Assembly: GCA_041661765.1 (NCBI GenBank)
Contig: JBAZTV010000002.1
Location: 139,130 to 203,129 of the forward strand
From: Candidatus Shapirobacteria bacterium
GTDB taxonomy: Bacteria; Patescibacteriota; Microgenomatia; UBA12405
Direction: 5' to 3'
Length of the DNA stretch: 64,000 bases
This document shows, piece by piece, positions 26,321 to 53,527 of the stretch (position 1 is its first letter; each line of letters begins with the position of its first letter). Under the pieces are notes generated by a model. That model searched no databases and was not told where the DNA came from. It worked only from the letters and a program-made list of their open reading frames with translations. Both the position numbers and the translations under genes were made by a program.

Positions 26321-26321
26321 T

Positions 26322-30378: not shown

Positions 30379-30379
30379 A

Positions 30380-31291
30380 ATGGATTTATCAGTCATAATT
30401 TTAAATTACAACTCTGCCGATTATCTAAAAAAATGTCTCGAAAGCATTACTAAATCAGATATTGATAATTATAAATATGAGGTAATTATTGTTGACAATA
30501 ATTCCACCGACGACAGCATAAAATTATCAAAGTCTATCCATTCACCTAATTTTAAATATCTCGAATTAAAAACTAATCAGGGTTTTGCTCACGGCAATAA
30601 TCAGGGTTTAAAAGAAATAAACCCAAAAATCAGACTCGTTCTTTTTCTAAACCCCGACACTATTGTTCAAAAAGACACTTTCAAAAAAATGATCGAATTT
30701 TTTAATCAAAACAAAAATATCGACGCTGCCACTTGCCAAATCAATTTAGCTCTCACCGGGAAAATGCAACCAGAATGCCATCGTGGTTTTCCTACCCCTT
30801 GGAATTCTCTGTGTTATTTTACAGGTCTGTCAAAATTATTTCCCCATTCAAAAATATTCTCCGGCTATTTTATGGGCAATTTAGACAAAACTGTTCCACA
30901 TAAAATTGATGCCTGTGTCGGCGCTTTTCTAATGGTCAAAAAAGAAGTCGGCGACAAAATCAAATGGTGGAATGAAAAATATTTTTTCTATGGTGAAGAT
31001 CTTGATTTTTGTTATCAATTAAAACAAAATAATTTTAATTTATATTTTAATCCAAATTGTAAAATAACCCATTTTCAGGGAGTTTCTTCTGGTTTAATTA
31101 ACAAAAGCAAACATCTTTCCAAAGCCTCACGACAAACTAAAATCAAAGTTGCTAAAGCCAGCACTCAAGCCATGAGAATTTTTTATCAAGAAAATTTATT
31201 TTCCCATTATTCAATTTTCACCAAATTTTTAGTCATGTCCGGCATTCAATTACTAGAACTCAAAAGAGTCTTCAAAGCCAAATATTTATGA
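30380..31291 (+). CDS. glycosyltransferase family 2
   Basis: MDLSVIILNYNSADYLKKCLESI...IIVDNNSTDDS. Confidence 0.75.
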   Translation: MDLSVIILNYNSADYLKKCLESITKSDIDNYKYEVIIVDNNSTDDSIKLSKSIHSPNFKYLELKTNQGFAHGNNQGLKEINPKIRLVLFLNPDTIVQKDTFKKMIEFFNQNKNIDAATCQINLALTGKMQPECHRGFPTPWNSLCYFTGLSKLFPHSKIFSGYFMGNLDKTVPHKIDACVGAFLMVKKEVGDKIKWWNEKYFFYGEDLDFCYQLKQNNFNLYFNPNCKITHFQGVSSGLINKSKHLSKASRQTKIKVAKASTQAMRIFYQENLFSHYSIFTKFLVMSGIQLLELKRVFKAKYL

Positions 31292-33512: not shown

Positions 33513-34588
33513 AACACTATATTTTTATTCTTTGCGGTGGAACCGGTCCCCGTCTTTGGCCTCTATCTCGAAAAAGCAAGCCTAAACAATTTCTCTCTTT
33601 TTTTAATAAAAAATCGATTTTAGAACAGACGATTAAAAGATCTCAACGTATTGCCGATAATAAAAATATTTACATCGTTTCTGGAAATGATTATATCGAT
33701 CGAATCCTTAAAATTGCCAAAGACTTTAATTTAACTAAAAACATAATTATTGAACCAGAAAAGAAAAATACCGCTCTGGCTATTCTTTTTGCCACTATCA
33801 AAATTAAACAAATAGACCCTAATGCTATCATTAGCACTTTTCCTTCTGATCACTACATTAAAAACACCGCTCGTTTAAAACAAACTCTCAATAAAGCTAA
33901 AACAATCGCTAATATTACTGACACCATTGTCACTATTGGTATTAAACCCACCAAACCAGATTCATCATATGGCTATATTTGCCCCAACCAAAAAATAGAC
34001 GATTACTACAATGTCTCCAAATTCATCGAAAAACCAAATCTTAAAAAAGCCGAAAAATTAATTGAAAAAAAATCTTACTGGAATTCAGGTATTTATACTT
34101 TTTCCGTTTCCACTTTGCTTTCTGAATTTGAAAAATTACAACCAGATTATTTTAACATAGCCATGGATTTAGAAAAAAATTTAGACTATCCAAAAAAAAT
34201 AGAACAAATATATAAACAATCTCCAAATTTATCCATTGATAAAGCTATCTCCGAAAAAACATCAAAAATAACTATGGTTCCAGCAACTTTCGATTGGAAT
34301 GATATTGGCGAATGGCATACTATTTTCAAAAGTTTACCCAAAAAAAAAGATAACAATGCTATTATTGACTCTAAAACTCAATTTTTAAGTACTAACTCCC
34401 AAAATTGTTTGATTTCTGGTCAAGATAAAAAATTAATCGGATTAGTTGGTGTGAATAATTTAGCTATAATTGACACTCCCGACGCTCTTTTAATTTGTAA
34501 TTTAGACTCTAGTTATAACGTTCGAGATTTAGTAAGCTTGATGGTGAAAAGTAAAAAATACAAAAAATACTTTTTAAATGAAAAATGA
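33494..34588 (+). CDS. manC: mannose-1-phosphate guanylyltransferase (NTP-transferase)
   Basis: The N-terminus YIFILCGGTGPRLWPLSRKSKPKQFL is the ManC/CpsB signature. Confidence 0.7.
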   Translation: MAESSIKHYIFILCGGTGPRLWPLSRKSKPKQFLSFFNKKSILEQTIKRSQRIADNKNIYIVSGNDYIDRILKIAKDFNLTKNIIIEPEKKNTALAILFATIKIKQIDPNAIISTFPSDHYIKNTARLKQTLNKAKTIANITDTIVTIGIKPTKPDSSYGYICPNQKIDDYYNVSKFIEKPNLKKAEKLIEKKSYWNSGIYTFSVSTLLSEFEKLQPDYFNIAMDLEKNLDYPKKIEQIYKQSPNLSIDKAISEKTSKITMVPATFDWNDIGEWHTIFKSLPKKKDNNAIIDSKTQFLSTNSQNCLISGQDKKLIGLVGVNNLAIIDTPDALLICNLDSSYNVRDLVSLMVKSKKYKKYFLNEK

Positions 34589-35223
34589 AAAAAATATTAT
34601 TCAAAATATTCAAAAGAACAATTGATTTTATTAGTTCATTATTTCTTCTCATTTTATTTTCCCCAATTATATTAATTACAATGATATTAATTAAAATCAG
34701 CTCTCCAGGTCCAATTTTCTTTAGACAAAAAAGAGTCGGTAAAAACAATCACCAATTTTGGATGTACAAATTCCGTTCCATGTATACTGGTGATAATGAT
34801 AAAAGACTAAGAGAAAATTACCCTGAACTTTGGAAAAAATATAAAGACGGTGGTTGGAAATTAGAAATGTCCCAAGATCCTCGTATCACCCCAATCGGTA
34901 AAAAAATTAGATCTCTCACTATCGACGAATTTCCTCAACTAATTAATGTACTAAAAGGGGATATGAGTTTGGTTGGACCCAGAGCCTATCGAGAAGAAGA
35001 ACTTCAAGAACAAGAAAAAAAATATCCTAAAACCAAAAAATATATTGATATTATTAGATCCGCTAAACCAGGCATTACCGGTGTTTGGCAAACTAGTGGT
35101 CGAAATGATATTTCTTTCGAACAACGAGCCAAAATGGATGCCGAATATATTAAAAAACAATCATTTTTTGATGAAATACTTATAATTTTAAAAACTCCAA
35201 CATCTATGTTGTCTCGTTGGTAA
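34585..35223 (+). CDS. initiating sugar-phosphate transferase (bacterial sugar transferase, WbaP/PglC-like)
   Basis: One N-terminal TM helix, then SPGPIFFRQKRVGKNNHQFWMYKFRSM...DEFPQLINVLKGDMSLVGPRA. Confidence 0.8.
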   Translation: MKKILFKIFKRTIDFISSLFLLILFSPIILITMILIKISSPGPIFFRQKRVGKNNHQFWMYKFRSMYTGDNDKRLRENYPELWKKYKDGGWKLEMSQDPRITPIGKKIRSLTIDEFPQLINVLKGDMSLVGPRAYREEELQEQEKKYPKTKKYIDIIRSAKPGITGVWQTSGRNDISFEQRAKMDAEYIKKQSFFDEILIILKTPTSMLSRW

Positions 35224-39140: not shown

Positions 39141-39857
39141 ATGAAGAAATCAATAATAATTTTTATTTCAATTAGTGTTATCATTTTAGTCTCATTAATT
39201 TTATTTTTTACGTTAGGTAAAAAAAATACTTCTAATACTAAAATCACCACTAAAAATACTACTCCAGTCACTAAAAAAATTGAATTATCCGCCGATGAAA
39301 AACCCTACATTAGCCTTATTCCCAGTTCTGAAGGCCATAATTTAATTTTTAAAGTTAAAGACATTCCGACTAAATTTACCACCGCCGAATATGAGTTAAT
39401 CTACACTGCTAAAGATGAAAATATAGAAATCGAAAAAGGAGTCAGCGGTACAATTGAGTTATCCGGAGGTGTTTTTGAAAAAGACCTATTATTAGGCACT
39501 GCCAGCTGCACCAACGGTTGTAAATATAAATACGATGAAGGTGTCACTGGAGGAATCCTCACCCTTACTCTAAAAACAAATAATAAAGAATACTTCTCTT
39601 ACGAAACGCCATTCGTTCTAACAAATTCCACCGATATTAATAAAGAAAAAAAATTAACTCTAATTGAAGAAAATTTTATTATCAATGGCACTGTCACTTC
39701 TAAAAGTGATTATTTCATCGCTCTTAAAAATTTACAATCCCTTTATTCCGTCTTCTCCAGTGGTAATGGTAAAGGCAAAATCACTTCAATTGAGCCAGCC
39801 ACTGTTATTAAAACTGACTTAACCTCAATAACTGGTGATTACACTATTACTCAATAA
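39141..39857 (+). CDS. hypothetical membrane-anchored/secreted protein
   Basis: N-terminal TM helix. No recognisable domain. Confidence 0.3.
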   Translation: MKKSIIIFISISVIILVSLILFFTLGKKNTSNTKITTKNTTPVTKKIELSADEKPYISLIPSSEGHNLIFKVKDIPTKFTTAEYELIYTAKDENIEIEKGVSGTIELSGGVFEKDLLLGTASCTNGCKYKYDEGVTGGILTLTLKTNNKEYFSYETPFVLTNSTDINKEKKLTLIEENFIINGTVTSKSDYFIALKNLQSLYSVFSSGNGKGKITSIEPATVIKTDLTSITGDYTITQ

Positions 39858-41001: not shown

Positions 41002-42654
41002 GTGCAAAATTCAAGGTCTAAAATATTATCTATCGCTCTCACTTTTTGTTTTATAATCGTTTCTTTCCGTTTTTTTTATTGGCAAGTTTTAAAAGCCCCA
41101 GAATTAAAAGAGAAAGCTAAAAACCAAACTTATAAACTTGAAAAAATATTACCTGAACGTGGAAAAATATATTCTTCTGATAATTTTCCCTTAGTTTTAA
41201 ATCAAACTACTTATCAACTTTCTCTTTATAAACCAAATTTTAAAGAAGATTTTGATAAAATTTTAGATCAAATTGAACAAGCTTATCCAAATTTCAAAAC
41301 TGAAAATATTGAATCAATCGACAAATTTAAAAATAACCCAAATCAAAAATGGATAACTTTTAACTCTGCCTTAAATGAAAAACAAAAAAAAATATTAGAT
41401 ATACCTGGGATTGAATTTCAAAAAATAGAGAAAAGATTTTATCCAGAAAATTCTATGGCCAGAGATATTCTTGGAACCATCGGTAGAGATTTTAGTGGTA
41501 CCCAAATTGGATATGGAGGTCTCGAAGCTTTTTATCAAAAACAATTACAAGGAAAGATTGGTTTTATTTGGGGTCCTCAAGACGCTACTGGAAAAACTAT
41601 TCTAAATAAAAAGAGCTGGAGCTCAGATGCAGCTAATGGTAGGAATATTTTTACTAATATCAATCGCAGTGCTCAATTTTATGTTGAAAAACTTCTCCAA
41701 GAAGGCATTGATAAATTTTCCGCTGATTCTGGATCAATTACTATCATTGAACCAAAAACTGGAGCAATTTTAGCTATGGCTTCACTAACTGCCACCAGTT
41801 CCGCCACTCCCAGTTCTATTAGAAATCCCGCCATTTCCGATCTTTTTGAACCAGGATCTATATTTAAACCTCTAATCGTTTCCATGGCTCTCGACACCAA
41901 AACTATTGACACTAATTATATTTGCACAAAATGCAACCAATCCCATATTATTGGTAAATATAATATTAGTAATTGGGATAGTGAATTTCATGCTGATTCT
42001 AGTCTTCAAGATATTATTAAAAACTCCGATAATATTGGTATGAGCTATATTATTGCCAAACTCGGTAAGGAAAATTTCTTAAATTATTATCAAAAACTCG
42101 GACTCACCCAAAAAACTGGAATTGATCTTCAGGGTGAAGCTAAGCCAACCATGAAAACCGAATGGCCAGAAATTGATTTAGCCACTGCCTCTTTTGGACA
42201 AGGAATTGTCGTCACTCAAATCGGCATGCTTCAAGCCTTTAATACTATTGCCAACGACGGTATTTTAGTTAAACCAAAAATCGTCAATTATTTTACTGAA
42301 AACGATAAAATTATTAAAAATAAAAATCAAAAAGAATTCCAAGTTTTTAATCAACAAACAATTAAAGATATTAAATCAATATTAAAATACTCAGTCGAAA
42401 ATGGTGTTGTTACCAAAATGAAACCAGAAAATCTTGAAGTTTGTGCCAAAAGCGGCACCGCACAAGTAGCTATTGGTGGTAGTTATGAAAATAATTCTTC
42501 CACTATCGCCTCATACATTGGATTTTCTCCCTGTTATAATCCCAAATTTACCATGATTGTCACCATTAATAATCCAAAAACTTCACCGTGGGGATCGAGT
42601 ACCGCTGCTCCAATTTGGTATGAGTTAGCATCAAAATTAAACGATTTGTTATAA
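41002..42654 (+). CDS. ftsI: class B penicillin-binding protein (transpeptidase)
   Basis: SxxK (SIFKP), SxN (KNSDNIG) and KSGT (AKSGTAQ) motifs. There is an N-terminal TM anchor. Confidence 0.85.
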   Translation: MQNSRSKILSIALTFCFIIVSFRFFYWQVLKAPELKEKAKNQTYKLEKILPERGKIYSSDNFPLVLNQTTYQLSLYKPNFKEDFDKILDQIEQAYPNFKTENIESIDKFKNNPNQKWITFNSALNEKQKKILDIPGIEFQKIEKRFYPENSMARDILGTIGRDFSGTQIGYGGLEAFYQKQLQGKIGFIWGPQDATGKTILNKKSWSSDAANGRNIFTNINRSAQFYVEKLLQEGIDKFSADSGSITIIEPKTGAILAMASLTATSSATPSSIRNPAISDLFEPGSIFKPLIVSMALDTKTIDTNYICTKCNQSHIIGKYNISNWDSEFHADSSLQDIIKNSDNIGMSYIIAKLGKENFLNYYQKLGLTQKTGIDLQGEAKPTMKTEWPEIDLATASFGQGIVVTQIGMLQAFNTIANDGILVKPKIVNYFTENDKIIKNKNQKEFQVFNQQTIKDIKSILKYSVENGVVTKMKPENLEVCAKSGTAQVAIGGSYENNSSTIASYIGFSPCYNPKFTMIVTINNPKTSPWGSSTAAPIWYELASKLNDLL

Positions 42655-42667
42655 TTGAATACTTTCA

Positions 42668-43969
42668 ATGGTTCAAAAATTAAAAAACGTCCTTCTCCAT
42701 CTACCAAAAAGTTTTTTTTACAATTTAAAGTACGGTTTTCCAAGTAAAAAATTAACTCTAATTGGTATCACTGGAACAGACGGTAAAACTACTACTTGCA
42801 CCCTAGTCAATGAAATATTAAAACAATCTGGTCTAAAAACTGGGTTAATCACTACTATTGGTGCAAAAATTGGCGATAAAGAAATAGATACTGGTTTTCA
42901 CACCACCACTCCAGATCCATCTATTCTCCAAAAAATTTTTACCGATATGGTAAAGGCTGGAATAACCCATGTTGTCTGCGAAGTTACCTCACATGCTCTT
43001 GATCAATACCGTTTTTGGGGTTGTAATTTTGAAGTTTCTGGTATCACCAATACCTCACACGAACATCTCGATTATCATAAAAATATAGAATCTTATATTG
43101 GAACTAAAGCTAAGCTTTTTTCAATTTCTAAAAGTGCTGTTTTAAATAAAGACGATCAATCTTTCGACATAATTAAAAAACAAATCAAAATCCCTTTTAA
43201 AACATTTAGTATTAAAAAAACTTCAGATTATCAAGCCCAAAAAATTAAATTAGATTCAAATTCATTAAGTTTTCATGTTAATGGTCAAAAATTTACCACC
43301 GACAGTAATTATGAATATCAGGTTTATAACATTCTGTTGGCCACTGCAATTTGTTATAAATTAGAAATAAATTCAGAAATAATTCAACGAGTAATAAAAC
43401 ATTTTCCAGAAACAAAAGGTCGTCGAGAAGAAATCCAAAATGACCTTAAATTTAAAACAATCATTGATTTTGCTCACACTCCATTTGCTCTTGAATCATC
43501 ACTTTCTTCACTTAACAAAACTAATCAAGGAAATACTATCGTTATTTTTGGAGCCACTGGTGGACGAGACCAAAGTAAACGCCCAATAATGGGTGAAATT
43601 GTTTCTAAGTTAGCCAACATCGCCTTAATCACTTCGGATGATACTAGAAACGAAAAAATAGAAAATATTAATAAACAAATAATAAGTGGTATTGATCCAA
43701 AAAAATCAGAACTAATTGATTATCAAGAAATTAAAAATAAAAAGCAAATTCAAAAAGTACTCGAATTATCCAATAAAAAATTTATATATTTTAATATTCC
43801 CAATCGTCAAGACGCCTTTAATTTAGCCATAAAATTAGCTCAACCAAACGATGTTGTTATTGCCTGTGGTAAGGGCCATGAAACCACTATTCTCCATGGA
43901 CACACTGAATATCCCTGGTCGGAAGCAGAAGCTTTTAGAACTGCCTTCAGACTTCGAAAAACAAAATAA
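42668..43969 (+). CDS. murE: UDP-MurNAc-tripeptide synthetase (MurE-type Mur ligase, short N-terminus)
   Basis: P-loop IGITGTDGKTTT, GATGGRDQSKRPIMG and TSDDTRNE, which is a variant of the DNPR motif with the Arg retained. Confidence 0.7.
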   Translation: MVQKLKNVLLHLPKSFFYNLKYGFPSKKLTLIGITGTDGKTTTCTLVNEILKQSGLKTGLITTIGAKIGDKEIDTGFHTTTPDPSILQKIFTDMVKAGITHVVCEVTSHALDQYRFWGCNFEVSGITNTSHEHLDYHKNIESYIGTKAKLFSISKSAVLNKDDQSFDIIKKQIKIPFKTFSIKKTSDYQAQKIKLDSNSLSFHVNGQKFTTDSNYEYQVYNILLATAICYKLEINSEIIQRVIKHFPETKGRREEIQNDLKFKTIIDFAHTPFALESSLSSLNKTNQGNTIVIFGATGGRDQSKRPIMGEIVSKLANIALITSDDTRNEKIENINKQIISGIDPKKSELIDYQEIKNKKQIQKVLELSNKKFIYFNIPNRQDAFNLAIKLAQPNDVVIACGKGHETTILHGHTEYPWSEAEAFRTAFRLRKTK

Positions 43970-43970
43970 T

Positions 43971-44579
43971 ATGACTCAGTTTAATTTAAAAAATACCAAT
44001 AATATTGATCAAAATTATAAAAATGGTCTCCTTCCTCAAAGAAACGACAAAAATTTATTTTATTCTCAATCCAGCAGCCGTTCTAATTTAAAAAACTTCA
44101 ACTTAAATTCAGAAAATCGCCGAATTTTAAGAAAAACAGATGACTTTAGTTTTGAGAAAATGCTTTTAAAAGATTTTAATTATAACGTCAAAGTTCAAAA
44201 AGAAATCTCTACTTGGATAAAAACACTTGATTGGAATTTTCCAATAAGTTCAATTAAAAATGTTTTCAAAAATCATATTTTTAATTATATATATATATGG
44301 AAAGATAAACAAAAAAATATCATTGCTTACTCTCTTTGTTATTTCTCAAAAGATATTAGCCATATCGCCTACGTTTTTTACAACCCAAAATTAACCCATG
44401 AAAATTTACCTATCCGCTTAGTTTTACAAGTCATTATCGACAGCCAAAAATTAGGTCTAAAATATTGTTATCTCGGTCGCTTTTCTCAAGATATTGGTTT
44501 TTACAAAAGAAATATGCCAGGTTTTGAATATTTTGAAAACAATCAATGGCTTCCATATAAAAATTTGTTTAAAATTTAA
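43971..44579 (+). CDS. ATE/Bpt-like aminoacyl-tRNA--protein transferase-fold protein (GNAT-like), Cys-less
   Basis: The C-terminus LGLKYCYLGRFSQDIGFYKRNMPGFEYFENNQW resembles the ATE_C core (GLxYxYLGYWI...KMxYKxxFxPxExL...W). The N-terminal F.L.S.ENRRILRK resembles ATE_N. Confidence 0.4.
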   Translation: MTQFNLKNTNNIDQNYKNGLLPQRNDKNLFYSQSSSRSNLKNFNLNSENRRILRKTDDFSFEKMLLKDFNYNVKVQKEISTWIKTLDWNFPISSIKNVFKNHIFNYIYIWKDKQKNIIAYSLCYFSKDISHIAYVFYNPKLTHENLPIRLVLQVIIDSQKLGLKYCYLGRFSQDIGFYKRNMPGFEYFENNQWLPYKNLFKI

Positions 44580-44581
44580 TT

Positions 44582-45955
44582 ATGCATATTCATATTTTAG
44601 GAATCGCCGGAACTATGACTGCCTCATTAGCCATCGCCCTAAAAAAAGAAGGGCACGTTATTACTGGTTCAGATCAAGAAAAAATTTATCCACCTATTAG
44701 TACTATTCTCAAAAAAGCCAACATCAAAATCAATTCTTCAAAAATTAATTCGACTATAGATTTAGCCATAATTGGTTCATCTTTTTCTAATTTTCAAAAA
44801 ACCAAAGAAGAGCTTGAGCAAATAAAAAAATTAAATATCAAATATATTTCCGCCAGTGAGTTTATTGCCCAAAATTTAAGCAAAGAAGACTCTATCTTAA
44901 TTGCCGGAACCTACGGTAAAACCACTATTTCCTCTCTTGTCTCTTGGATTTTTGATCAGGCCAATTTAAACCCCAATTATATGTTCGGCGGAAAAGCACT
45001 TAATCATTTTCCCTCAGTTAATATCTCCCCATCAAATTGGTCTATTATCGAAGCCGATGAATCAATTCATGGTCTCGACACTCAAGCCAAATTTTTATAT
45101 TACCCAGTCAAATTTTTATTACTAACTAGTGCTGATTGGGAACACAAAGATTCTTATTCCACCGAAATTGAAAATTTTAATGCCTTTAAAAAATTAATTT
45201 TAAATGTTCCCACTGATGGAATTTTATTTATAAATTCCCAAGGATATCAAACAAAAGAACTAAGTCTTTATTCAAAATCAAAAATAATTACCTATAATTC
45301 ACCAACTTCTGATTATTTTATAAAAAATATAAAAATCAAAAAAAATTTTTCCATTTTAGACATCAAAACTCCTAGAAATATTATCCAAATCAAAACTAAA
45401 TTAATTGGCCAATTCAACTTTGAAAACATTTTAGCCGCCATCACTATTGTTGATAGTTTAAATATTCCCCAAACTAAAATTAAACAAGCCATTTCAAAAT
45501 TTAAAGGTATTAATCGTCGAATTGAAAAAATTTATGATCATGGAAATATTATTATATTTGATGATTTTGCCCAATCTTCCAATAGAATAAAATCAACTAT
45601 TGCTGCTATAAAATTTCATTATCCAAAAAATAATATCAAAATTTTATACCAACCTCACGCTTCCTTTATTCAACACAAGAAAAGCCTAAAAGAATTTAAA
45701 AACGTTTTTGATTCAGTTTCTGAAGTCGTCTTGTCTAAATTAAGTTTTAATCATAAAGTTGAAAAAAATAATCGTGTCACTGCCAAAGATTTTAAAGAGG
45801 TGGTTGGTAATAAATTAATATATCTTCCCATCGATAAAGATATTTGTTCTTTTTATAAAAAAAATCTCAAAAGTGGCGATATTTTAATTAATATGAGCTC
45901 TGGCGGTTTTAGTGGAAATAAAATTGTAAAATCTATTATTAATTCTTTAAAATAA
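44582..45955 (+). CDS. Mur ligase of the MurC/Mpl clade, with Mpl-like N-terminal signature
   Basis: MHIHILGIAGTMTASLAIALKKEGHVITGSDQEKIYPPISTIL (IHILGIxGTxMxxLA and YPPMST are Mpl-typical). P-loop GTYGKTT. Confidence 0.65.
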   Translation: MHIHILGIAGTMTASLAIALKKEGHVITGSDQEKIYPPISTILKKANIKINSSKINSTIDLAIIGSSFSNFQKTKEELEQIKKLNIKYISASEFIAQNLSKEDSILIAGTYGKTTISSLVSWIFDQANLNPNYMFGGKALNHFPSVNISPSNWSIIEADESIHGLDTQAKFLYYPVKFLLLTSADWEHKDSYSTEIENFNAFKKLILNVPTDGILFINSQGYQTKELSLYSKSKIITYNSPTSDYFIKNIKIKKNFSILDIKTPRNIIQIKTKLIGQFNFENILAAITIVDSLNIPQTKIKQAISKFKGINRRIEKIYDHGNIIIFDDFAQSSNRIKSTIAAIKFHYPKNNIKILYQPHASFIQHKKSLKEFKNVFDSVSEVVLSKLSFNHKVEKNNRVTAKDFKEVVGNKLIYLPIDKDICSFYKKNLKSGDILINMSSGGFSGNKIVKSIINSLK

Positions 45956-45958: not shown

Positions 45959-47287
45959 ATGTCCAGATATATCATTAATGGTGGTAAACCACTTAAAGGT
46001 GAAGTTTCTATTAGAGGTGCCAAAAATGCCAGTTTTAAACAAATTATCGCTTCCATGTTAACCGATAAAACAGTTCAATTAAATAATGTTCCAAAAATTT
46101 CAGATGTCAAAATAACCACCAGTATCGCCAAAAGTTTAGGTTGTCAAATAAACCAAATAGGGGATCACAGTCTAGAATTAAAAACTTCTAAAATAACTAA
46201 TTCAACAGTGCCCAATGGTACTGGTGAAAAATCTAGAACCTCATTTATATTTGTCGCCCCATTACTCACCAGAACTGGAACTGCCATTGTTCCTACTCCA
46301 GGCGGCGATAAATTAGGTAATAGACCATTAGACCGTCTTTTTGATTGTTTTTCAAAAATGAATATTCATTTTTCTGAAACTGAAAATAATATTACATTTA
46401 ACACCGACAAAATTATCGGCACTCATTATACTTTTACAAAACCTTCTCATACCGTCACCGAAGTAATCCTTATGACTGCCACTCTCGCTAACGGCGAAAC
46501 CATCATCGACAACGCTGCTCTTGAACCAGAAATCGATGACTTAATCTTAATGCTAAATCAGATGGGAGCTAATATTCAAAGAGATCTAAAAAATAATAAA
46601 AGAATAATTATTCAAGGTGTATCTAAATTAAAAGGAACTGAACATGATGTAATTTGCGATCGAAATGAAATAGTCACTTTCGCTTGTGCCGCTTTAGCTA
46701 CTAAAGGGTCAGTCTCTATTTTTAGAGTCAAACCAAAAGTTGTTCAAACATTTTTAGAAATTATTGAAAAAATGGGGGCTAAAATTAAAACTGGTAATGA
46801 TGAAATTTATGTTGAATGGGTTAAGCCTTTGACCAATATTGATATTGAAACTGGACCAGAACCAGAATTTATGACCGATTGGCAGGCTATTTTTTCTGTT
46901 CTATTAACTCAAACCGTTGGTTGTAGTTCTATTATCGAAAAGGTCTATCCTAGCCGATTTCAACACATTGAAAATCTTAAAAAAATGGGAGTTAAGGTTA
47001 ATTTTTTCAATCCAGAAATAAATAATCCGAACGAATATTATCAATTTAATAAAGAAAGTGATCGTCCTGAATATTTTCATGGTGTTAAAATTTATGGCCC
47101 TACCAAATTAAAACCATCTAATTTTGTTATTAAAGATCTTCGAGCTGGAGCCTCAGCTACAATTGCTGCTCTAACCGCATCTGGTAAATCAACTATTGAT
47201 GGAGTCGAGTATATTGAGAGGGGATATGAAAAATTAGCTGAGCGTCTTTGGTCTCTAGGTGCTAATATAGAATATATAAAAACATAA
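45959..47287 (+). CDS. murA: UDP-N-acetylglucosamine 1-carboxyvinyltransferase
   Basis: MSRYIINGGKPLKGEVSIRGAKNASFKQIIASML...LDRLF. 442 aa. Confidence 0.9.
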   Translation: MSRYIINGGKPLKGEVSIRGAKNASFKQIIASMLTDKTVQLNNVPKISDVKITTSIAKSLGCQINQIGDHSLELKTSKITNSTVPNGTGEKSRTSFIFVAPLLTRTGTAIVPTPGGDKLGNRPLDRLFDCFSKMNIHFSETENNITFNTDKIIGTHYTFTKPSHTVTEVILMTATLANGETIIDNAALEPEIDDLILMLNQMGANIQRDLKNNKRIIIQGVSKLKGTEHDVICDRNEIVTFACAALATKGSVSIFRVKPKVVQTFLEIIEKMGAKIKTGNDEIYVEWVKPLTNIDIETGPEPEFMTDWQAIFSVLLTQTVGCSSIIEKVYPSRFQHIENLKKMGVKVNFFNPEINNPNEYYQFNKESDRPEYFHGVKIYGPTKLKPSNFVIKDLRAGASATIAALTASGKSTIDGVEYIERGYEKLAERLWSLGANIEYIKT

Positions 47288-47290: not shown

Positions 47291-48325
47291 ATGATTCATC
47301 TATATCTAGGACTACTTCTCTTTTCTTTTTTAATCACCAGTATTTTAGTTATACCTTTCATTAACCTTCTCTATAAATTTAAATTTCAACGACAAACTCA
47401 AAAAACCACTGACTTCCAAAACAAAAGAACTACCATATTCGACAAATTTCACAATCTAAAATCAGGGACACCTGTTGGTGGCGGATTATTGATTATCGCC
47501 ACTGTTTCCATTCTTTTTATATTACTTTTTCCAATTCTTAAATTTTCTCGAATCTTTATTTCATCCAATTACACTATCACCCATGAAATCGCTATTCTAT
47601 TTTTTACTTTCATTAGTTTTGGTATGCTCGGTCTTTATGACGACGTACACAAATTTTTCGGATTCAAAAATACTGGATTCTTCGGCCTAAAAATGATCCA
47701 TAAATTAATTTTACAAATAATAATTTCATTAATCATTTCCTTTATGATTTATTTTCAATTAAAAATTGATTTTATTTATCTACCGTTTTTTGGCGCTATT
47801 AATTTAGGATTTTTCTTTATCCCTATTTCCGTCATTTTTATCACTGGCTTTGCTAATTTCTTTAATATTACTGATGGCTTAGACGGTTTATCTGGCGGAC
47901 TTTTAATGTTTGCTCTTTTTGCGTTTTGGATTTTAGCCAGCACTTCAATGGATACTGTTCTCTCTTCATTTTTAGCTCTCTGGATCGGTTCTCTAATAGC
48001 ATTTCTTTATTTTAATGTTTATCCAGCCAGAATCTGGCTCGGCGATGTTGGGTCACTCTCTTTCGGTGCCACTTTTGCTGTAATTGCTTTACTTTTAGGA
48101 AAAGTCGTTCCTTTAATTATAGTAGGAGCTCCATTCATTATTGAAGGTTTATCCAGTGCTATTCAACTATTCAGTAAAAAATATTTTCATAAAAAAGTTT
48201 TTCCCGCTGCTCCAATTCACCTTACTTTCCAAAACATGGGTTGGGAAGAGCCAAAAATCGTTTTCAGGGCTTGGCTAGCCGGAATTATATTAGCAGTATT
48301 TGGACTATGGTTAGGACTAAATTAG
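47291..48325 (+). CDS. mraY: phospho-N-acetylmuramoyl-pentapeptide transferase
   Basis: FANFFNITDGLDGLSGG and LGDVGSLSFGA motifs. 10 TM helices. Confidence 0.9.
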   Translation: MIHLYLGLLLFSFLITSILVIPFINLLYKFKFQRQTQKTTDFQNKRTTIFDKFHNLKSGTPVGGGLLIIATVSILFILLFPILKFSRIFISSNYTITHEIAILFFTFISFGMLGLYDDVHKFFGFKNTGFFGLKMIHKLILQIIISLIISFMIYFQLKIDFIYLPFFGAINLGFFFIPISVIFITGFANFFNITDGLDGLSGGLLMFALFAFWILASTSMDTVLSSFLALWIGSLIAFLYFNVYPARIWLGDVGSLSFGATFAVIALLLGKVVPLIIVGAPFIIEGLSSAIQLFSKKYFHKKVFPAAPIHLTFQNMGWEEPKIVFRAWLAGIILAVFGLWLGLN

Positions 48326-48846
48326 AACTACAACAAGAGATAGAGAAATATATCGGCTTACCTTATAGTAAGAATATCCTTAAAGACGACAAAATAATCA
48401 AAGAACAATTTCTTGGAGGTAAAGGCAATTGTCGACAAATAGCTACAGAAACTATCCGACTTGCCCAAAAACAAAAAATAGATTTAATTCAATTAAATAA
48501 CCAAGAATTTTATAATTTTCAAAAAAAGAACCATATCGGTATTGATTGTTCTGGCCTTGCCTGTCAATTATTAAATTTTTATTTTAATTCAGAATTAAAT
48601 CCTCGCCAAACTTCCGCCAACATATTGACCTCCACTCCAATTTCAAAAGAAATAAAACCAAATGAAATTAAAACAGGAGATTTGATCCGACAAAAAAACG
48701 GTCATCATGTCTTATTTATCATCGACAAACAAGGCAACACCATTAATTATGTCGACAGTTCATTTTCCGGCAGGGGAGTAAGATATGGAACTGCCGACCT
48801 CACCAATAAATCATTTATCCACCAAGGCTTCTTTCGATTAATTTAA
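48307..48846 (+). CDS. NlpC/P60-like papain-fold cysteine peptidase (putative cell-wall hydrolase)
   Basis: Internal ATG at 48307. The ORF-track start is a TTG inside mraY. IGIDCSGLACQLL provides the catalytic Cys and GDLIRQKNGHHVLFII the His. Confidence 0.4.
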   Translation: MVRTKLELQQEIEKYIGLPYSKNILKDDKIIKEQFLGGKGNCRQIATETIRLAQKQKIDLIQLNNQEFYNFQKKNHIGIDCSGLACQLLNFYFNSELNPRQTSANILTSTPISKEIKPNEIKTGDLIRQKNGHHVLFIIDKQGNTINYVDSSFSGRGVRYGTADLTNKSFIHQGFFRLI

Positions 48847-48861: not shown

Positions 48862-49020
48862 CTATTTTTCCTCGATTAATTCTCGATATTTTAGTGGAGT
48901 CAAAGATAAAATCTCTACCTCAGTCCCACATTCAGGACATTCAATAATATCTCCCACCATTGTGGCTTCTATTAATTCAATTTCTGTTTCACAATCTGGA
49001 CAAATAACTTTTTCGTTCAT
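48862..49020 (-). CDS. 52-aa LysW-like double CPxCG zinc-ribbon protein (absent from the ORF track)
   Basis: The minus-strand translation is MNEKVICPDCETEIELIEATMVGDIIECPECGTEVEILSLTPLKYRELIEEK. Compare Thermus LysW, ...CPECGAELRL...CEDCGAELEVVGLDPLRLE... The C-terminus ends EEK, not the acceptor EDWGE. Confidence 0.45.
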   Translation of the reverse strand: MNEKVICPDCETEIELIEATMVGDIIECPECGTEVEILSLTPLKYRELIEEK

Positions 49021-49060: not shown

Positions 49061-49882
49061 ATGGCAAATACACCTTTAATTAAATTAGAAAATGTTTATC
49101 TAAAAAGAGAAGACTTAAACGAAACCGGCTCAGCTAAAGATCGAGCCATGATTTTTCAAATCGAAAATTTAAAAAAACAGGGTTTTAAAACTGCTGTCAT
49201 TTCCAGCACTGGCAATGCCGCCATTTCCGCCGCCTATTTTTGCCACCTTAATCAAATTGACCTAACAATTTTTGTTTCCCCTAAAATCAATAAAACTAAA
49301 TTTGATTTACTCAAAAAGGATGGTGGTCAAATTTTTATTACCGATCAACCAATTAGTGAATCCATAAAATTTTCCAAAAAAAATCACTCCTATCTTCTTC
49401 GTCAATCCACCGACCCCAGTGCCCTAATTGGTTACCAAGAAATTGGCAAAGAATTAATGAATAAACTACCCCAAATTACAAGTATTTTTGTTCCAGTTGG
49501 CAGTGGTACAACCCTTCTAGGAATTTCTCAAACATTGACATCATCAGTTAAAATCTATGCCACTCAACCAGCCAGTAATTGTCCTTTATCAAAATTTTTT
49601 GATTCAAATTATCAACCAGAAACAGAAAATATCACCGATGCACTTTCCGCTAAATATCTTCCTTTAAAATCTCAAATAATTTCTACCATTAAAAACAGTG
49701 GTGGCACTGGTCTGGTCGTTCAAAATAATGAAATTTTAGAAGCCCAAAAAATACTAGAATCAAATAAAATAAAAACATCTCTAGAAGGTGCTTTAGCTTT
49801 TGCTGGCTTTAAAAAAGCCACTAAAAATAATCTAAATATAGGCAGTTATCCAGTAGTGATTCTAACCGGATGCCAAAGATAA
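49061..49882 (+). CDS. PLP-dependent fold-type II enzyme (threonine synthase / Trp-synthase-beta-like)
   Basis: TPLIKLENVYLKREDLNETGSAKDRA carries the PLP Lys. Then STGNAAISAAYF and a Gly-rich loop VGSGTT. At 273 aa it is short. Confidence 0.55.
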   Translation: MANTPLIKLENVYLKREDLNETGSAKDRAMIFQIENLKKQGFKTAVISSTGNAAISAAYFCHLNQIDLTIFVSPKINKTKFDLLKKDGGQIFITDQPISESIKFSKKNHSYLLRQSTDPSALIGYQEIGKELMNKLPQITSIFVPVGSGTTLLGISQTLTSSVKIYATQPASNCPLSKFFDSNYQPETENITDALSAKYLPLKSQIISTIKNSGGTGLVVQNNEILEAQKILESNKIKTSLEGALAFAGFKKATKNNLNIGSYPVVILTGCQR

Positions 49883-50982
49883 ATCTAGAAACCACTATTA
49901 ATAAATCGCCTTATATTTTCTTTTTTTTAGTCGTCGATAAATTTTTAGATATCGAAATCCCTCAATTAACAAAATTCGAAAAAATTTATCTTTCCGACTA
50001 TCCCTCAATTAAAGAAAAAAACAGCGGCAAATTACTATCAAACCCAAAAGTTATTGACTACATTTTAAAAAAATCTCAAAAGACTAAACTCATTCCTGCC
50101 ATAATTCCTTTTAAACCATCCGCTAAAATTGATTTTTTGTGTCAAAAATATAATTGGATAAATATTAGTAATCCTAGCCCTATTAATCGTTTTTTAGAAG
50201 ACAAAATTAAATTTGCCAAACTTAGTCAAAAATACAAATTACCAACCATTCCTTTTTCCATTGATAATTTTTCTCAAAAAAATTTTTTAAAATATCAAAA
50301 ACTTTATAATAAAAAATTAGTTCTTCAAACCCACTTTGGTTGGGCTGGTAATAGCACATTTTCAGCCGAATCTTGGAATGAAATTAAAGATAAAATTTCT
50401 TCTGATGTTATTGTAAAATACAGCCCCTTTATTAAATCTTCTTATTCCTTATTAAATAATTGTTGTCTTACTAAATTTGGTCTAATTCAAAGTCCACCTG
50501 CTCTTCAATACACTGGAATTTATCCCTATACAAAAAATCCCTTCACTACTGTCGGTCGGCAATGGCCATCTTTTGCTCCCTTAAAAATAACCAATGAAAT
50601 TAATAAAATAACTGAAAATTTCAGTAAAATTTTGAAAGAAATCGGTTATAAAGGTTTTTTTGGTCTCGATTTTTTAATTTATAAAAATAAAGTTTTTTTA
50701 TTAGAATGTAACCCTCGTCTAACCGCATCCTTTGGTTTTTATACAAAAATAGAACAAAAACAAAATATCACTCCTCTTTTCTATTTTCATATTGTTGAAT
50801 TCTTAAAAACTAATTATCAAATTAACCTAAAACAAGAGCAATCAAGATTCAATAATAAAAAAATTATCGGTTCTGAGTTAACCACAAAAGATAAAAATAA
50901 TCACACTCATCAAAAACTAAATTTTGATTACCCTTTATCAAAAACCACCAATCCTATCTCTATTTCCCAAAAAATTAAATGA
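49870..50982 (+). CDS. ATP-grasp carboxylate-amine ligase of unknown specificity
   Basis: GFFGLDFLIYKNKVFLLECNPRLTASFGF is a typical ATP-grasp C-domain. 370 aa. Confidence 0.55.
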   Translation: MPKINLETTINKSPYIFFFLVVDKFLDIEIPQLTKFEKIYLSDYPSIKEKNSGKLLSNPKVIDYILKKSQKTKLIPAIIPFKPSAKIDFLCQKYNWINISNPSPINRFLEDKIKFAKLSQKYKLPTIPFSIDNFSQKNFLKYQKLYNKKLVLQTHFGWAGNSTFSAESWNEIKDKISSDVIVKYSPFIKSSYSLLNNCCLTKFGLIQSPPALQYTGIYPYTKNPFTTVGRQWPSFAPLKITNEINKITENFSKILKEIGYKGFFGLDFLIYKNKVFLLECNPRLTASFGFYTKIEQKQNITPLFYFHIVEFLKTNYQINLKQEQSRFNNKKIIGSELTTKDKNNHTHQKLNFDYPLSKTTNPISISQKIK

Positions 50983-52145
50983 AAGAAACTAAATCTCCTC
51001 TTCTATTTTTGGTTTTTAGTTTAGTTTTTATTGGACTTATTTTTATTTCTATTTCATCATTAAGTGAAGCCAGCTCCTCAATTGGAGATAAATTCTTTTA
51101 TATAAAAAAACAAGGATTTTGGCTTGTTTTAGGAATAATTTCTTTTTATATAACTTCAAAAATCAATATTAAAACTATTAAAAAATTTTCTTTTGCCCTT
51201 TATGCAATTTCCATTTTCGGTTTAATACTGGTTTTAATTCCAAGCCTAGGAAATGAAGCTCTTGGTGCCAGACGTTGGTTGAATTTAGGTTTTACCAGCA
51301 TCCAGCCTTCAGAAATTTTAAAATTAACTTCAATCATTTATTTTTCTTTTCTTTTTTCCAAAAAAGAAAACCTTAATATAAAAAACCTGATTTTTTACCT
51401 TGGTCTTCCTTTTATATTAATAATTGTAGAGCCAAATTTAAGCACCGCTATTTTAATTTCAGCCATAGTTAGTTCCATTTATTATCTTTCCGGAGGAGAT
51501 ATTGTTCCTTTATTTAGTATTTTTTGCATTATTTTAATAATCAGTATTCCATTAATTTTTTTATCACCATATCGATCAGCCAGACTAAAAACTTTTTTAG
51601 AACCACAACAAAATCAAGAAACTTCATCGTACCACAGCAATCAAATCATTCTAACCCTTTCTTCTGGAGGTTTTTTTGGTAAAGGCTTCGCTAATTCGGA
51701 TCAAAAATATAAATTCCTTCCAAAAATTTCCACCGATTCAATTCTTGCTGTTATTGGTGAAGAAATTGGTTTTATAGGAATTTTTGCAGTTTTATTGGTT
51801 TATCTTTCCTTAATAAATTATCTTTTAAGATTTTCTCAAACTATAGATGATCCATTTCAAAGTTTAATAGTATCAGGAAGCGCTTGTTGGATTGCCTATC
51901 AAAGCTTGATTAATATTTCCGCCATTACTGCTCTCATTCCATTAACTGGCGTCACTCTCCCATTTATTTCCTATGGCGGATCCTCCCTTATTACTCTTTT
52001 TATTGTTATTGGTCTAATCAGAAACATCGAAAAAAACCAAAAAATGTTGCTATACTCAAAGAGTGAACACAGTAAAAAAGACGATAATAATCACCGGAAC
52101 ACACTTAACTCCAGCGCTAGAACTCATTCGCCAATTGAAAATTGA
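50979..52145 (+). CDS. ftsW: SEDS-family peptidoglycan glycosyltransferase
   Basis: 10 TM helices. LPFISYGGSSLI C-terminal motif. The hydrophilic tail overlaps murG by 83 bp. Confidence 0.8.
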   Translation: MKETKSPLLFLVFSLVFIGLIFISISSLSEASSSIGDKFFYIKKQGFWLVLGIISFYITSKINIKTIKKFSFALYAISIFGLILVLIPSLGNEALGARRWLNLGFTSIQPSEILKLTSIIYFSFLFSKKENLNIKNLIFYLGLPFILIIVEPNLSTAILISAIVSSIYYLSGGDIVPLFSIFCIILIISIPLIFLSPYRSARLKTFLEPQQNQETSSYHSNQIILTLSSGGFFGKGFANSDQKYKFLPKISTDSILAVIGEEIGFIGIFAVLLVYLSLINYLLRFSQTIDDPFQSLIVSGSACWIAYQSLINISAITALIPLTGVTLPFISYGGSSLITLFIVIGLIRNIEKNQKMLLYSKSEHSKKDDNNHRNTLNSSARTHSPIEN

Positions 52146-53157
52146 TAACAAAATTGATTGGCAAATAAATTATATTGGTCGAAAAAATAATTCCAGTGTC
52201 GGTAATAACCCCTCAATTGAATCTAAAATTATCCCAAAAATAGGCATAAATTTTTATTCCATTAATTGTGGCAAATTGGATCGTCGTTGGCTTCTAAATA
52301 CCATAAAAGGTCTTCCTCAAACCACCAGTTCATTATTTAAATCTTTAAGATTAATTAAAAAAATAAAACCGGATATTATTGTTTCCTTTGGAGGCTATGT
52401 TTCTGTTCCAGTAATTATTAGTAGTTTTTTAAAAAAAATACCATCTATTACTCATGAACAAACCCTAACCAATAGTTTAACCACAAAAATTAATAGTCTT
52501 TTTGTCAACAAAGTAGCTCTTTCTTTTAATAATAAAAATCAAAAAGAAAATCTTCCCAAAAACAAAATAATTATTACCGGAAATCTATTAAGACAAGAAA
52601 TTTTTCATCCACAAATTTCAAAAATAGGCGACAATCTCAAAAAAATAAAAGTTCCTATTATTTATATTACCGCCGGCAATCAAGGTTCCCACACTATAAA
52701 CTTATTAATTAAAAAAATATTACCTGAGCTAAAAAAATATTTTATAATTCACCAAACTGGAAAAAATGATTTTTCTGAGTTCAAAAAAATGGAAAAAAAA
52801 TACCCAAATTACCAAGTTTTTGACTATCTAGAAGCTAATAATGTCGGACATATCTTTAATAAAGCAGATCTCATTATTAGTCGTTCCGGTGCCAACACCA
52901 GCCAAGAAATTGTCGCCCTAAACAAAAAATCAATTTTAATTCCACTTAAAATTAGTCAACAAAATGAGCAATTATTAAATGCTCTTTGGGTAAAAGAAAA
53001 AAATCCAAAAAATACCCAAATTATAGAAGAAAAAAATATCACTAAAAAAAATGTTTTAAAAAAAATAAATAAATTAATTATTGTTAAAACCAAAAAAATC
53101 GCCATTAAAAACACTGATAACTTAAAACTTTTAAACTTAATTCATGAAATTATTTAA
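52063..53157 (+). CDS. murG: UDP-GlcNAc:lipid I N-acetylglucosaminyltransferase
   Basis: IIITGTHLTPALELIRQL N-terminal loop. GT28 C-terminal domain (ITAGNQGSHTIN...ISRSGANTSQEIV). Confidence 0.8.
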   Translation: MNTVKKTIIITGTHLTPALELIRQLKIDNKIDWQINYIGRKNNSSVGNNPSIESKIIPKIGINFYSINCGKLDRRWLLNTIKGLPQTTSSLFKSLRLIKKIKPDIIVSFGGYVSVPVIISSFLKKIPSITHEQTLTNSLTTKINSLFVNKVALSFNNKNQKENLPKNKIIITGNLLRQEIFHPQISKIGDNLKKIKVPIIYITAGNQGSHTINLLIKKILPELKKYFIIHQTGKNDFSEFKKMEKKYPNYQVFDYLEANNVGHIFNKADLIISRSGANTSQEIVALNKKSILIPLKISQQNEQLLNALWVKEKNPKNTQIIEEKNITKKNVLKKINKLIIVKTKKIAIKNTDNLKLLNLIHEII

Positions 53158-53527
53158 GATTTTTATTTTTATTATTTTTTTTTCAGCCCTTTTCTACTCT
53201 ATTTTTTCATTTGTAAATTCCTCTGGAGATAAGATCAATCCAATTTCAAATAAAAACAATTTTTATCTTCAATTAGAACATGGTTTAAAAACAGCTCAAA
53301 TTGACCTTACAAAAAGTACCATCAAGGATTATCAAAATCAATTTGAATTCTATATAATTAATGAAGGCAATAATCCAATTAAAATTATTTTATCCACTCA
53401 AAAAAATCCATATTGGCAAATTGCTTCTTTACAAGAAATTTTAAAAACAGCTAAAATTAATAATAAGCAACTACAATTAGTTGATCTCAGTATCAACCAC
53501 CCATATGCAACATTCAAAAATAATTAA
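53144..53527 (+). CDS. minimal FtsQ/DivIB-like protein (by position only)
   Basis: 127 aa. One N-terminal TM helix. Located between murG and ftsA. Confidence 0.3.
   Translation: MKLFKIFIFIIFFSALFYSIFSFVNSSGDKINPISNKNNFYLQLEHGLKTAQIDLTKSTIKDYQNQFEFYIINEGNNPIKIILSTQKNPYWQIASLQEILKTAKINNKQLQLVDLSINHPYATFKNN

Follow-up and report, generated by a model that had tools for sequence, protein, structure and literature searches.

A Mpl-like ligase in the MurC position of a Candidatus Shapirobacteria dcw operon points to a different start of the peptidoglycan peptide

How does a bacterium begin the peptide of its peptidoglycan when the ligase encoded at the MurC position of its division and cell wall (dcw) operon does not look like an ordinary MurC? 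The question is raised by an open reading frame (ORF) at 44582-45955 (+ strand, ATG start, 457 aa) in a 64,000-nt stretch of DNA, hereafter the window, from a Candidatus Shapirobacteria bacterium (GCA_041661765.1, JBAZTV010000002.1, positions 139,130-203,129, forward strand; G+C ~30%). Nearly all wall-bearing bacteria are regarded as relying on the cytoplasmic Mur pathway (MurA-F), a major target of antibiotics. An earlier note on this DNA had seen signatures of Mpl (murein tripeptide ligase) in the protein, and had suggested that a preformed peptide might be joined to UDP-N-acetylmuramic acid (UDP-MurNAc) by salvage rather than built stepwise. We find that a distinct, conserved and catalytically intact ligase of the MurC/Mpl family holds the MurC slot, and that its operon points to a different, undescribed start of the peptidoglycan peptide.

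The replacement becomes clear when the window is set beside canonical Microgenomates loci, which were located via the short MurF of a relative. In two of these, L017 and L018, the gene order is GlyRS...rsmH-ftsL-ftsI-murE(short)-PgeF-MurC-murB-murA-(ddl)-murF(short)-mraY-murD-ftsW-murG-ftsQ-ftsA-ftsZ-IleRS. The window has the same frame and the same flanking genes, for glycyl-tRNA synthetase (GlyRS, at 37817) and isoleucyl-tRNA synthetase (IleRS, at 56641), but between them the order is rsmH, ftsI, murE, an ATE_C-like gene, the ligase gene, murA, mraY, an NlpC/P60-like gene, a LysW-like gene (minus strand), genes for a pyridoxal phosphate (PLP) enzyme and an ATP-grasp ligase, ftsW, murG, ftsA and ftsZ. 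The L017 and L018 ligases are true MurC types (DDYAHHP, FQPHTYSRTK, GAGxI), ~26% identical to the window ligase, which holds their place between murE and murA; the MurC position that had been claimed for it is borne out by this synteny. The slot of the PgeF-type Cu-oxidase_4 gene is occupied by the ATE_C-like gene, the murD slot by the four-gene block of NlpC/P60-like, LysW-like, PLP and ATP-grasp proteins, and murB and murF are gone from the cluster. We considered whether the upstream GlyRS might be a dedicated tRNA charger for the ATE-like enzyme, and rejected this as the same synteny is found in L018. Two further loci show intermediate or distant arrangements. L013, with a ligase 39% identical to that of the window, has the ligase swap and still has a short murF before mraY, and L016, from a distant relative within the Candidate Phyla Radiation (CPR), has the full module beside a ligase that is only ~31% identical. 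In L016 a DUF2238 membrane-protein gene (9310-9921) lies between the ATE_C gene and the ligase gene; 5 kb upstream, on the other strand, is murB.

The arrangement is not peculiar to one assembly. A scan of one genome per GTDB species yielded 270 relatives of the ligase, of which the best 80 (39-93% identity) were taken with 10-kb flanks; 52 loci had enough flank and were scored by tblastn. The closest relative, L019, comes from a Candidatus Shapirobacteria metagenome-assembled genome (93% protein identity), in keeping with a position of the window organism among the Microgenomates of the CPR (Patescibacteria). The same gene order was found in 52 of the 52 loci, all of which have MurE, MraY, the NlpC/P60-like, LysW-like and ATP-grasp proteins, FtsI and FtsW; the ATE-like protein, the PLP enzyme and MurG were each scored in 51, and MurA, next to the ligase, in 44. 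MurC-type, MurD, MurF, MurB, Ddl and PgeF sequences were detected within 10 kb of the ligase in none of the 52. A gene order that recurs in 80 GTDB species is far beyond chance. Throughout the lineage MurC, MurD and PgeF, and likewise MurB and MurF, are gone from the operon slots that they normally fill.

In the window, murA (45959-47287, +; TIGR01072 409 bits, above cutoff) adjoins the ligase gene and is followed by mraY (47291-48325, +; TIGR00445 161.8 bits, below the cutoff of 192; Pfam Glycos_transf_4). In 8 of the 52 full-flank loci murA does not lie between the ligase gene and mraY; the loci without it there are L057, L065, L067, L073, L077, L084, L086, L090, L092 and L096. Remodelling of the cluster is therefore still under way in this lineage. 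Many of the records L020-L098 that bear this CPR cluster are labelled 'uncultured Gammaproteobacteria bacterium', L076 is labelled 'Candidatus Methanoperedens sp.' and L048 'Candidatus Saccharibacteria', evidently placeholder or mis-binned names.

Are the missing Mur genes elsewhere? Pfam and NCBIfam scans of the window's 54 ORFs of 100 aa or more (the 104-aa ORF at 60820-61134 excepted) identified two Mur-family ligases in the 64 kb, MurE and the ligase studied here. In agreement with the earlier note, tblastn queries with the MurD, MurF and Ddl proteins of E. coli and of Microgenomates detected no further murD, murF or ddl in the window, and no murB was found in it. Searches by phmmer and tblastn for concealed or decayed copies of murD, murF and ddl there also gave no match. 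An extension beyond one window end added sugar-metabolism genes only. We also matched contigs by their lengths between tables of the best 120 matches each (MurD at least 59%, MurF at least 43% identity). As a positive control, the Microgenomates MurF and MurD tables share 12 contigs, including contigs of 466,595, 578,079 and 615,331 bp. The clade of the window ligase is represented by 190 contigs, of which 108 reach 10 kb or more and eight measure 0.5-1.1 Mb; among the matches listed, none of these 108 is shared with the MurD or the MurF table, the sole coincidences being two contigs of less than 3 kb. This result is suggestive but not conclusive of an absence of MurD and MurF from the clade. 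Full-text searching of the literature found no description of this operon arrangement, and a paper on the evolution of the dcw cluster leaves out CPR (PMC8871954).

To which family, then, does the ligase belong? It lies below the equivalog cutoffs of both candidate NCBIfam models, with 236.8 bits against a cutoff of 335.1 for TIGR01082 (murC) and 178.2 bits against 388.7, or ~210 bits short, for TIGR01081 (mpl). When the three sequences are aligned together, its identity is 26.2% with E. coli Mpl and 24.8% with E. coli MurC, compared with 30.1% between those two. Pairwise comparisons favour Mpl: BLASTP gave 157 bits with E. coli Mpl and 99 bits with E. coli MurC, 129 of the 134 nearest representatives were also closer to Mpl, and the top PDB sequence match was the Psychrobacter Mpl 3hn7 (133.5 bits, or 79.6 bits with the N-terminal 148 residues alone). 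An exhaustive search of 1.84 billion representatives showed the nearest relatives to be a large and diverse set of CPR-type ligases, and in a neighbour-joining tree (142 sequences, 463 columns, 200 bootstraps, MurD root, sampling biased towards the query) the clade of the window ligase received 100% bootstrap support and was nested in a 68-taxon CPR-type assemblage (59%). This assemblage grouped with canonical Mpl and not with canonical MurC (66% support). The MurC/Mpl tree that the earlier note had called for thus puts the protein on the Mpl side, not robustly with MurC, yet in a separate CPR clade and with modest support for the node that decides the side. Among the distant representatives are natural MurE-MurC and MurD-MurC fusions, P0181 (959 aa) and P0260 (897 aa).

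Structure prediction was less discriminating. The ligase has the Pfam domains Mur_ligase (N) and Mur_ligase_M, and an AlphaFold2 model from 54 clade sequences (predicted local distance difference test 93.5, predicted template-modelling (TM) score 0.92) has the full three-domain MurC/Mpl fold; with these three domains and the catalytic Lys, Glu and His, the protein belongs to the Mur ligase superfamily. Foldseek gave a TM-score of 0.86 to the closed Haemophilus influenzae MurC (HiMurC) structure 1p31 and of 0.83 (target-normalised) to the N and M domains of 3eag, but the TM-scores track open versus closed domain arrangement, and we discarded fold comparison as a means of telling Mpl from MurC. 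Overall, the ligase is neither a canonical Mpl nor a canonical MurC but a member of a third, CPR-specific branch of the MurC/Mpl family, and within that family it appears to lean to the Mpl side rather than to ordinary MurC.

As criteria for the motifs we used the Mpl-defining features of Das et al. 2011 (PMC3060825), with HiMurC numbering taken from the PDB alignment. The N-terminus of the ligase, MHIHILGIAGTMTASLAIAL...GSDQEKIYPPIST, has no N-terminal extension and aligns with that of E. coli Mpl, MRIHILGICGTFMGGLAML...GSDANVYPPMST; it aligns poorly with that of E. coli MurC (IHFVGIGGAGMGG...GSDLAPNPVTQ). The glycine-rich loop, GIAGTMT, is of the GI(C/G)GTFM type seen in Mpl (GICGTFM; GIGGAGM in MurC), with a bulky residue at position 12 where MurC has Gly, and GSD is followed by YPPIST, close to the YPPMST of Mpl (NPVTQ in MurC). 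The C-terminus, MSSGGF, is again Mpl-like (MSNGGF in Mpl, GAGNI or more generally GAGxI in MurC). In the loop after E(A/G)DE the ligase has an insertion, S-IHGLDTQAKF, of similar length to that of Mpl (YD-AFFDKRSKF), compared with the short SDASF of MurC, but the Mpl-only (S/T)AFFDKRSK motif itself has become GLDTQAKF and is absent from the ligase and across its clade, as is Tyr182, which is replaced by Ser. Residues 90-92 are SAS, not the SGP of Mpl (RRA in MurC). The DD-motif reads DDFAQSS, keeping the F-A of Mpl (DDFAHHP; DDYGHHP in MurC) and losing both His, and the motif after the strand reads QPHASFI (EPRSNT in Mpl, QPHRYSR in MurC), with the His kept and both Arg lost.

The N-terminal motifs, although real, do not identify the enzyme. 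The inserted loop is also present in the true MurC of the canonical Microgenomates L017 and L018. A control protein, P0186, has both YPP and the inserted loop and scores 261 bits by BLAST with E. coli Mpl and 223 with E. coli MurC, but its C domain is of the MurC type (DDYAHHP, EPHTFTR) and its gene lies in the order murD-ftsW-murG-[ligase], the classical murC position. Because P0186 has these features at a murC position beside murD, the N-terminal Mpl signature is not diagnostic, and automatic 'Mpl' annotation by the Joint Genome Institute (JGI), or any call from N-terminal motifs, is unreliable for these CPR ligases. The earlier note was therefore right that the N-terminus is closer to Mpl than to the MurC consensus, but the signatures do not make the protein an Mpl: it falls short of TIGR01081 and lacks the FFDKRSK, Tyr182, HH and EPRSNT features.

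With MurC (E. coli b0091, H. influenzae 1p3d and those of L017 and L018; 22-26% identity) the ligase has in common the fold, the murE-murA slot, the EADES and QPH motifs and the conserved catalytic P-loop, Mg and ATP residues. The difference lies in the acceptor site. The L-Ala contacts of HiMurC are Y346, H348, H376, R377 and R380 (PMC3060825), which correspond in the ligase to F329, Q331, H359, A360 and I363. Only H376 is retained; four of the five contacts are lost (Y346F, H348Q, R377A and R380I), including both Arg that hold L-Ala in MurC. These changes are not signs of decay. Across 124 clade members K113, T115, E157, D159, E160, H188, N279, N282 and R313 are at least 98% conserved, as is a clade-specific C-domain signature (D328-F-A-Q-S332, H359-A-x-F362, R398, Y414-x-P416), and 80 positions in all reach this level. 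The conservation of the catalytic residues and of these 80 positions rules out a pseudogene or decaying ligase; from its residues the protein is predicted to be an active enzyme with a distinct acceptor pocket. It adds a new variant to the Mur ligases, with MurC/Mpl-like chemistry and scores below the cutoffs of both known members.

What remains of the pathway on either side constrains what the ligase may do. Upstream, ftsI (41002-42654, +; NCBIfam PBP2/SpoVD/FtsI, a class B penicillin-binding protein and D,D-transpeptidase) anchors the segment and is followed by murE (42668-43969, +; 433 aa; TIGR01085 344 bits, above cutoff). As the earlier note had observed, this MurE is N-terminally short. 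It aligns only from approximately position 77-104 of the MurE profiles, so that domain 1 (N-terminal, UDP-binding) is missing, and there is no room for it because ftsI ends 13 bp upstream. The note had taken the shortness as a hint of salvage, and this part does not hold: MurE is truncated in the same way in L018, a Microgenomates with MurC, MurD and MurF, where MurF is short too, and for the same reason we rejected the short MurE as a sign that the peptide is assembled off the nucleotide. The short MurE and MurF genes lie at 4396-5631 and 10001-11239 in L018, at 12759-14033 in L013 and at 42668-43969 in the window. The N-terminal domains of MurE and MurF are absent in Microgenomates, full-pathway genomes included, a lineage-wide domain loss that raises the question of how UDP-MurNAc-peptide is held.

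The window MurE is 44% identical to that of the canonical L018 and is retained in all 52 loci. Its specificity motif (window 43600-43640, residues ~312-318) is DDTR, as in L006 of the same clade; L013 and L018 have EDPR at this site and E. coli has DNPR, so the third-position amino acid of the stem may differ in the window lineage. The active-site motifs of FtsI (S286xxK, S342xN, K483SG) are intact, and a D-Ala-D-Ala-type donor is therefore still expected.

Five further proteins travel with the ligase. All lack hydrophobic segments, in contrast to the MraY and FtsI controls, and are therefore predicted to be cytoplasmic; they are co-inherited with the ligase, and some are fused to it. The gene immediately upstream (43971-44579, +) encodes a 202-aa aminoacyl-tRNA-protein transferase-like protein of GNAT fold, which we call ATE_C-like. 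It matches Pfam ATE_C (PF04377) at 26.2 bits (gathering cutoff 25), as do 25 of 25 orthologs, and NCBIfam arginyltransferase at E=1e-8; no PDB relative was detectable by sequence-profile search. In most of 78 loci its stop codon is at most a few bp away from the start of the ligase gene, with a 4-bp overlap in 12, and the two proteins are fused in P0124 and in read-through ORFs of L067 and L095. Its domain is that of Bpt and ATE1, and its place in a peptidoglycan precursor operon recalls Fem/MurM proteins, whose genes are often found there. It is, however, short, has no ATE_N domain and falls far under the NCBIfam equivalog cutoffs; it is also fused or translationally coupled to the first Mur ligase, as neither Fem nor Bpt is known to be.

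The other four occupy the murD slot. The NlpC/P60-like cysteine peptidase (48307-48846, +; 179 aa) is the first of them and matches NLPC_P60 (PF00877) marginally, at 23.3 bits against a gathering cutoff of 23, as do 21 of 25 orthologs. Its G-x-D-C-S-G-L motif and His are invariant (C80 and H133 in the alignment of orthologs), PDB profile matches to Spr/MepS were not significant, and it has neither a transmembrane segment nor a signal peptide. In P0161 an NlpC/P60 domain is fused to the C-terminus of a ligase. The LysW-like four-Cys zinc-ribbon protein (48862-49020, -; 52 aa) reaches 35.5 bits with TIGR01206 (E=7e-9), below the cutoff of 53.2 for LysW, and carries Pfam Zn_ribbon_LysW in precomputed gene calls; C7, C10, C28, C31 and E50-E51-K52 are at least 95% conserved in 67 orthologs. 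The fold-type II PLP enzyme (49061-49882, +; 273 aa; Pfam PALP 159 bits), threonine-synthase or serine-racemase-like, is nearest to archaeal-type threonine synthase in NCBIfam (99 bits, far under cutoff) and to Thr deaminase and Ser racemase in the PDB (~44 bits), with an invariant PLP Lys26 (GSxKDR), SSxGNAA and GSGxT. The ATP-grasp ligase (49870-50982, +; 370 aa; Pfam ATP-grasp_3) is not Ddl-type. It scores 97 bits against a cutoff of 684 with PRK06524, has an invariant E279-C-N-P-R283 motif, and gave only generic ATP-grasp matches in a PDB profile search. The slot ends at ftsW (50979-52145, +; SEDS glycosyltransferase, TIGR02614 312.7 bits), which is followed by murG (52063-53157, +; start codon uncertain; TIGR01133 187 bits).

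How might these parts work together? The ligase is taken to be the only UDP-MurNAc-binding amino-acid or peptide ligase of the dcw operon, having displaced true MurC, while PgeF would have given way to a homolog of aminoacyl-tRNA transferases and MurD to the four-gene block. Going by the conserved residues and the fold, the enzyme almost certainly follows the course of all Mur ligases, in which ATP activates the lactyl carboxylate of UDP-MurNAc and the resulting acyl-phosphate is attacked by an amine. That amine would not be that of free L-Ala held in the MurC way; the N-terminus of a short preformed unit is the most likely candidate. L-Ala-D-Glu is accepted (weakly) by purified Mpl enzymes, as are longer peptides (PMC3060825, Table 3). 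Because the conserved MurE needs a gamma-carboxylate to extend, the simplest acceptor would be an L-Ala-D-Glu-type dipeptide, and because MurE is retained and conserved, the unit is unlikely to be the full tripeptide of Mpl. The unit could be delivered by the module, either by NlpC/P60 trimming imported murein peptides to the dipeptide, which would be salvage, or by the ATE_C-like transferase, the ATP-grasp ligase and the PLP enzyme building or extending it, or by both. The fusions of ATE-like protein and ligase would make sense in such a scheme, because an ATE-type enzyme makes a new N-terminal residue and the ligase consumes an N-terminal amine. We give about even odds to the reading in which this ligase begins the stem peptide by attaching an acceptor that is non-canonical, probably preformed, and supplied by the co-inherited module. 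Of the contrast between salvage and stepwise synthesis drawn in the earlier note, a non-stepwise or otherwise non-canonical start is reasonable, because MurC, murD and murF are replaced within a syntenic frame; the setting, a core dcw operon with a biosynthetic-looking module, is not that of recycling.

Several observations weigh against this interpretation. The best-scoring NCBIfam model for the ligase is murC, above mpl. With local hidden Markov models built from 42 canonical Mpl and 16 MurC-type sequences the protein is equidistant over its full length (339 bits for Mpl, 333 for MurC), and by domain the N and M domains score 247 against 233 bits and the C domain 81 against 92. The Mpl-side node has a bootstrap of only 66%, in a neighbour-joining tree with query-biased sampling. 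Of the residues proposed to bind the peptide in Mpl (F374, A375, H376, H377; E402-PRSNT407; S483-N-G485), the ligase keeps F-A, but HH is replaced by QS, EPRSNT by QPHASF and SNG by SSG, and the acceptor is deduced only from lost and gained residues and from the neighbours. When over-expressed, the Mpl of E. coli can complement a murC mutant (PMC3060825), which means that a single amino acid can be used by a Mpl-like scaffold. The absence of murC, murD, murF, ddl and murB applies to the loci, and for murD and murF also to the contig matches listed, not to whole genomes, and as L013 keeps murF and L016 has murB nearby, the missing genes may lie elsewhere. If MurF and Ddl are truly absent, the model leaves the D-Ala-D-Ala-type donor unexplained, and it assigns no definite role to the LysW-like protein, the PLP enzyme or the ATP-grasp ligase.

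Some of these points would be accommodated if the ligase were a functional MurC with a re-shaped pocket, a possibility that we regard as a serious but clearly less probable one. In that case it would join a single residue, which may be L-Ala, Gly or L-Ser, to UDP-MurNAc. A second residue, possibly unusual or D-configured, would be made and added in MurD's stead by the ATP-grasp, PLP and LysW-like proteins, the ATE_C-like protein would add a side-chain or cross-bridge residue like Fem, and the NlpC/P60-like protein would proofread in place of PgeF. The ligase does sit exactly at the MurC site of L017 and L018, with the four-gene block precisely in the murD slot and MurE kept, and both the top-scoring TIGRFAM model and the best structural superposition (the closed HiMurC) are those of MurC. 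The PLP enzyme has a serine racemase among its closest relatives of solved structure, the addition of D-amino acids to peptidoglycan precursors is a known activity of ATP-grasp enzymes (PMC2922099), and over-expressed Mpl can use L-Ala (PMC3060825). However, the two Arg for the L-Ala carboxylate are replaced (A360, I363), and the Tyr and His contacts have become Phe and Gln, in at least 98% of the clade. Nor is there a clear reason for a MurC to be exchanged for a paralog with 26% identity together with the loss of PgeF, the editor of MurC errors, and were ATE to act several steps further on, its fusion to the ligase would be harder to account for.

Two other explanations appear much less probable. 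If the amino acid or short peptide were built or modified on a carrier, the EEK tail of the LysW-like protein would be the scaffold for the ATP-grasp, PLP and ATE-like enzymes, the NlpC/P60-like protein would release the product and the ligase would couple it to UDP-MurNAc, by analogy with LysW/LysX. The likeness is attractive: a ~52-aa zinc-ribbon with four Cys that matches LysW models, an acidic tail which, like the Cys, is invariant in the 67 orthologs, and a gene always beside those of the ATP-grasp ligase and PLP enzyme (52 of 52 loci), the distant L016 included. Some genomes also have the ligase fused to a peptidase or to a tRNA-dependent transferase. Yet the tail ends in Lys and not in the Glu of LysW (EDWGE), the TIGR01206 score is under the cutoff, the ATP-grasp ligase is not of the LysX/RimK type, and the context is the cell wall rather than lysine or arginine synthesis. 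The kinase, reductase and aminotransferase typical of carrier pathways are missing, with no LysZ, LysY, LysJ or LysK homologs at the locus. This route, which draws entirely on gene neighbourhood, is in our view improbable. Less probable still, and very unlikely, is that the protein is an ordinary recycling Mpl which re-attaches recycled tripeptide while a complete MurC-F/Ddl pathway operates elsewhere in the genome. Many clade members are annotated Mpl by JGI, the N-terminal and C-terminal (MSSGGF) motifs are Mpl-like, and the scan for Mur genes in this genome covered the window. Murein-peptide recycling sets such as YkfA/B/C of B. subtilis and MpaA/Mpl of E. coli also combine a ligase that re-attaches peptide to UDP-MurNAc with peptide processing, and a cytoplasmic NlpC/P60 gamma-D-Glu-diamino-acid endopeptidase, as YkfC, is typical of them. 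Here, in contrast, the genes lie inside an essential biosynthetic operon and apparently substitute for part of it, with no peptide transporter, LD-carboxypeptidase or epimerase seen within 10 kb of the ligase. The ligase is at the MurC position in 52 of 52 species with murC and murD gone from their slots, whereas Mpl has a separate recycling locus; it misses the Mpl cutoff by a wide margin and is without the Mpl hallmarks; and MurE, still needed downstream and conserved, would be redundant for a tripeptide ligase. The eight 0.5-1.1 Mb contigs without MurD or MurF among the matches listed, set against 12 shared contigs in the control, also argue against it.

Other features of the window were noted in passing. 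A 238-aa ORF without a family match (39141-39857, +) lies upstream of rsmH at the site expected for mraZ, where the relatives L013 and L018 have a recognisable MraZ, and a 127-aa ORF without a Pfam match (53144-53527, +) is found at the ftsQ position; FtsQ of canonical Microgenomates has 235-247 aa and contains POTRA. A second SEDS protein of the FtsW/RodA family (59444-60454, +), additional to that encoded by ftsW, lies 3' of IleRS. A giant ORF of 2512 aa (8454-15992, -), which begins with TTG, probably encodes a surface adhesin, as expected for an episymbiont; its domains are MBG_2, bacterial surface Ig-like, FlgD-Ig and fn3. A polysaccharide-synthesis operon (20749-35223, +, and 71-8389) encodes GT1, GT2 and GT4 glycosyltransferases, Wzy, a hexapeptide acyltransferase, an undecaprenyl-phosphate sugar transferase and DUF4012, and near it are genes for a Wzx flippase, UDP-glucose dehydrogenase, a sulfatase-family (lipoteichoic acid-synthase-like) protein and a Fic-domain protein.

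If the arrangement extends as the survey hints, a whole CPR lineage of ultra-small bacteria (at least 80, possibly ~270 GTDB species) may make its peptidoglycan without MurC and MurD, and the sub-lineage of the window perhaps without MurF and Ddl. A short peptide or modified amino acid, made or trimmed in the cytoplasm by the ATE-like, ATP-grasp, PLP and NlpC/P60 proteins, possibly on the LysW-like carrier, would then be attached en bloc by the Mpl-like ligase, a wider proposal that we put forward tentatively and hold to be doubtful. If true, such a substitution of other enzyme classes for MurC and MurD would be the first natural route around the two initial peptide-adding steps, and the ligase would define a new specificity class among the Mur ligases. 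It would give functions to five co-travelling CPR families that are now 'hypothetical', and would show how obligate episymbionts with minimal metabolism obtain wall peptides containing D-Glu, be it from their host or through a novel route.

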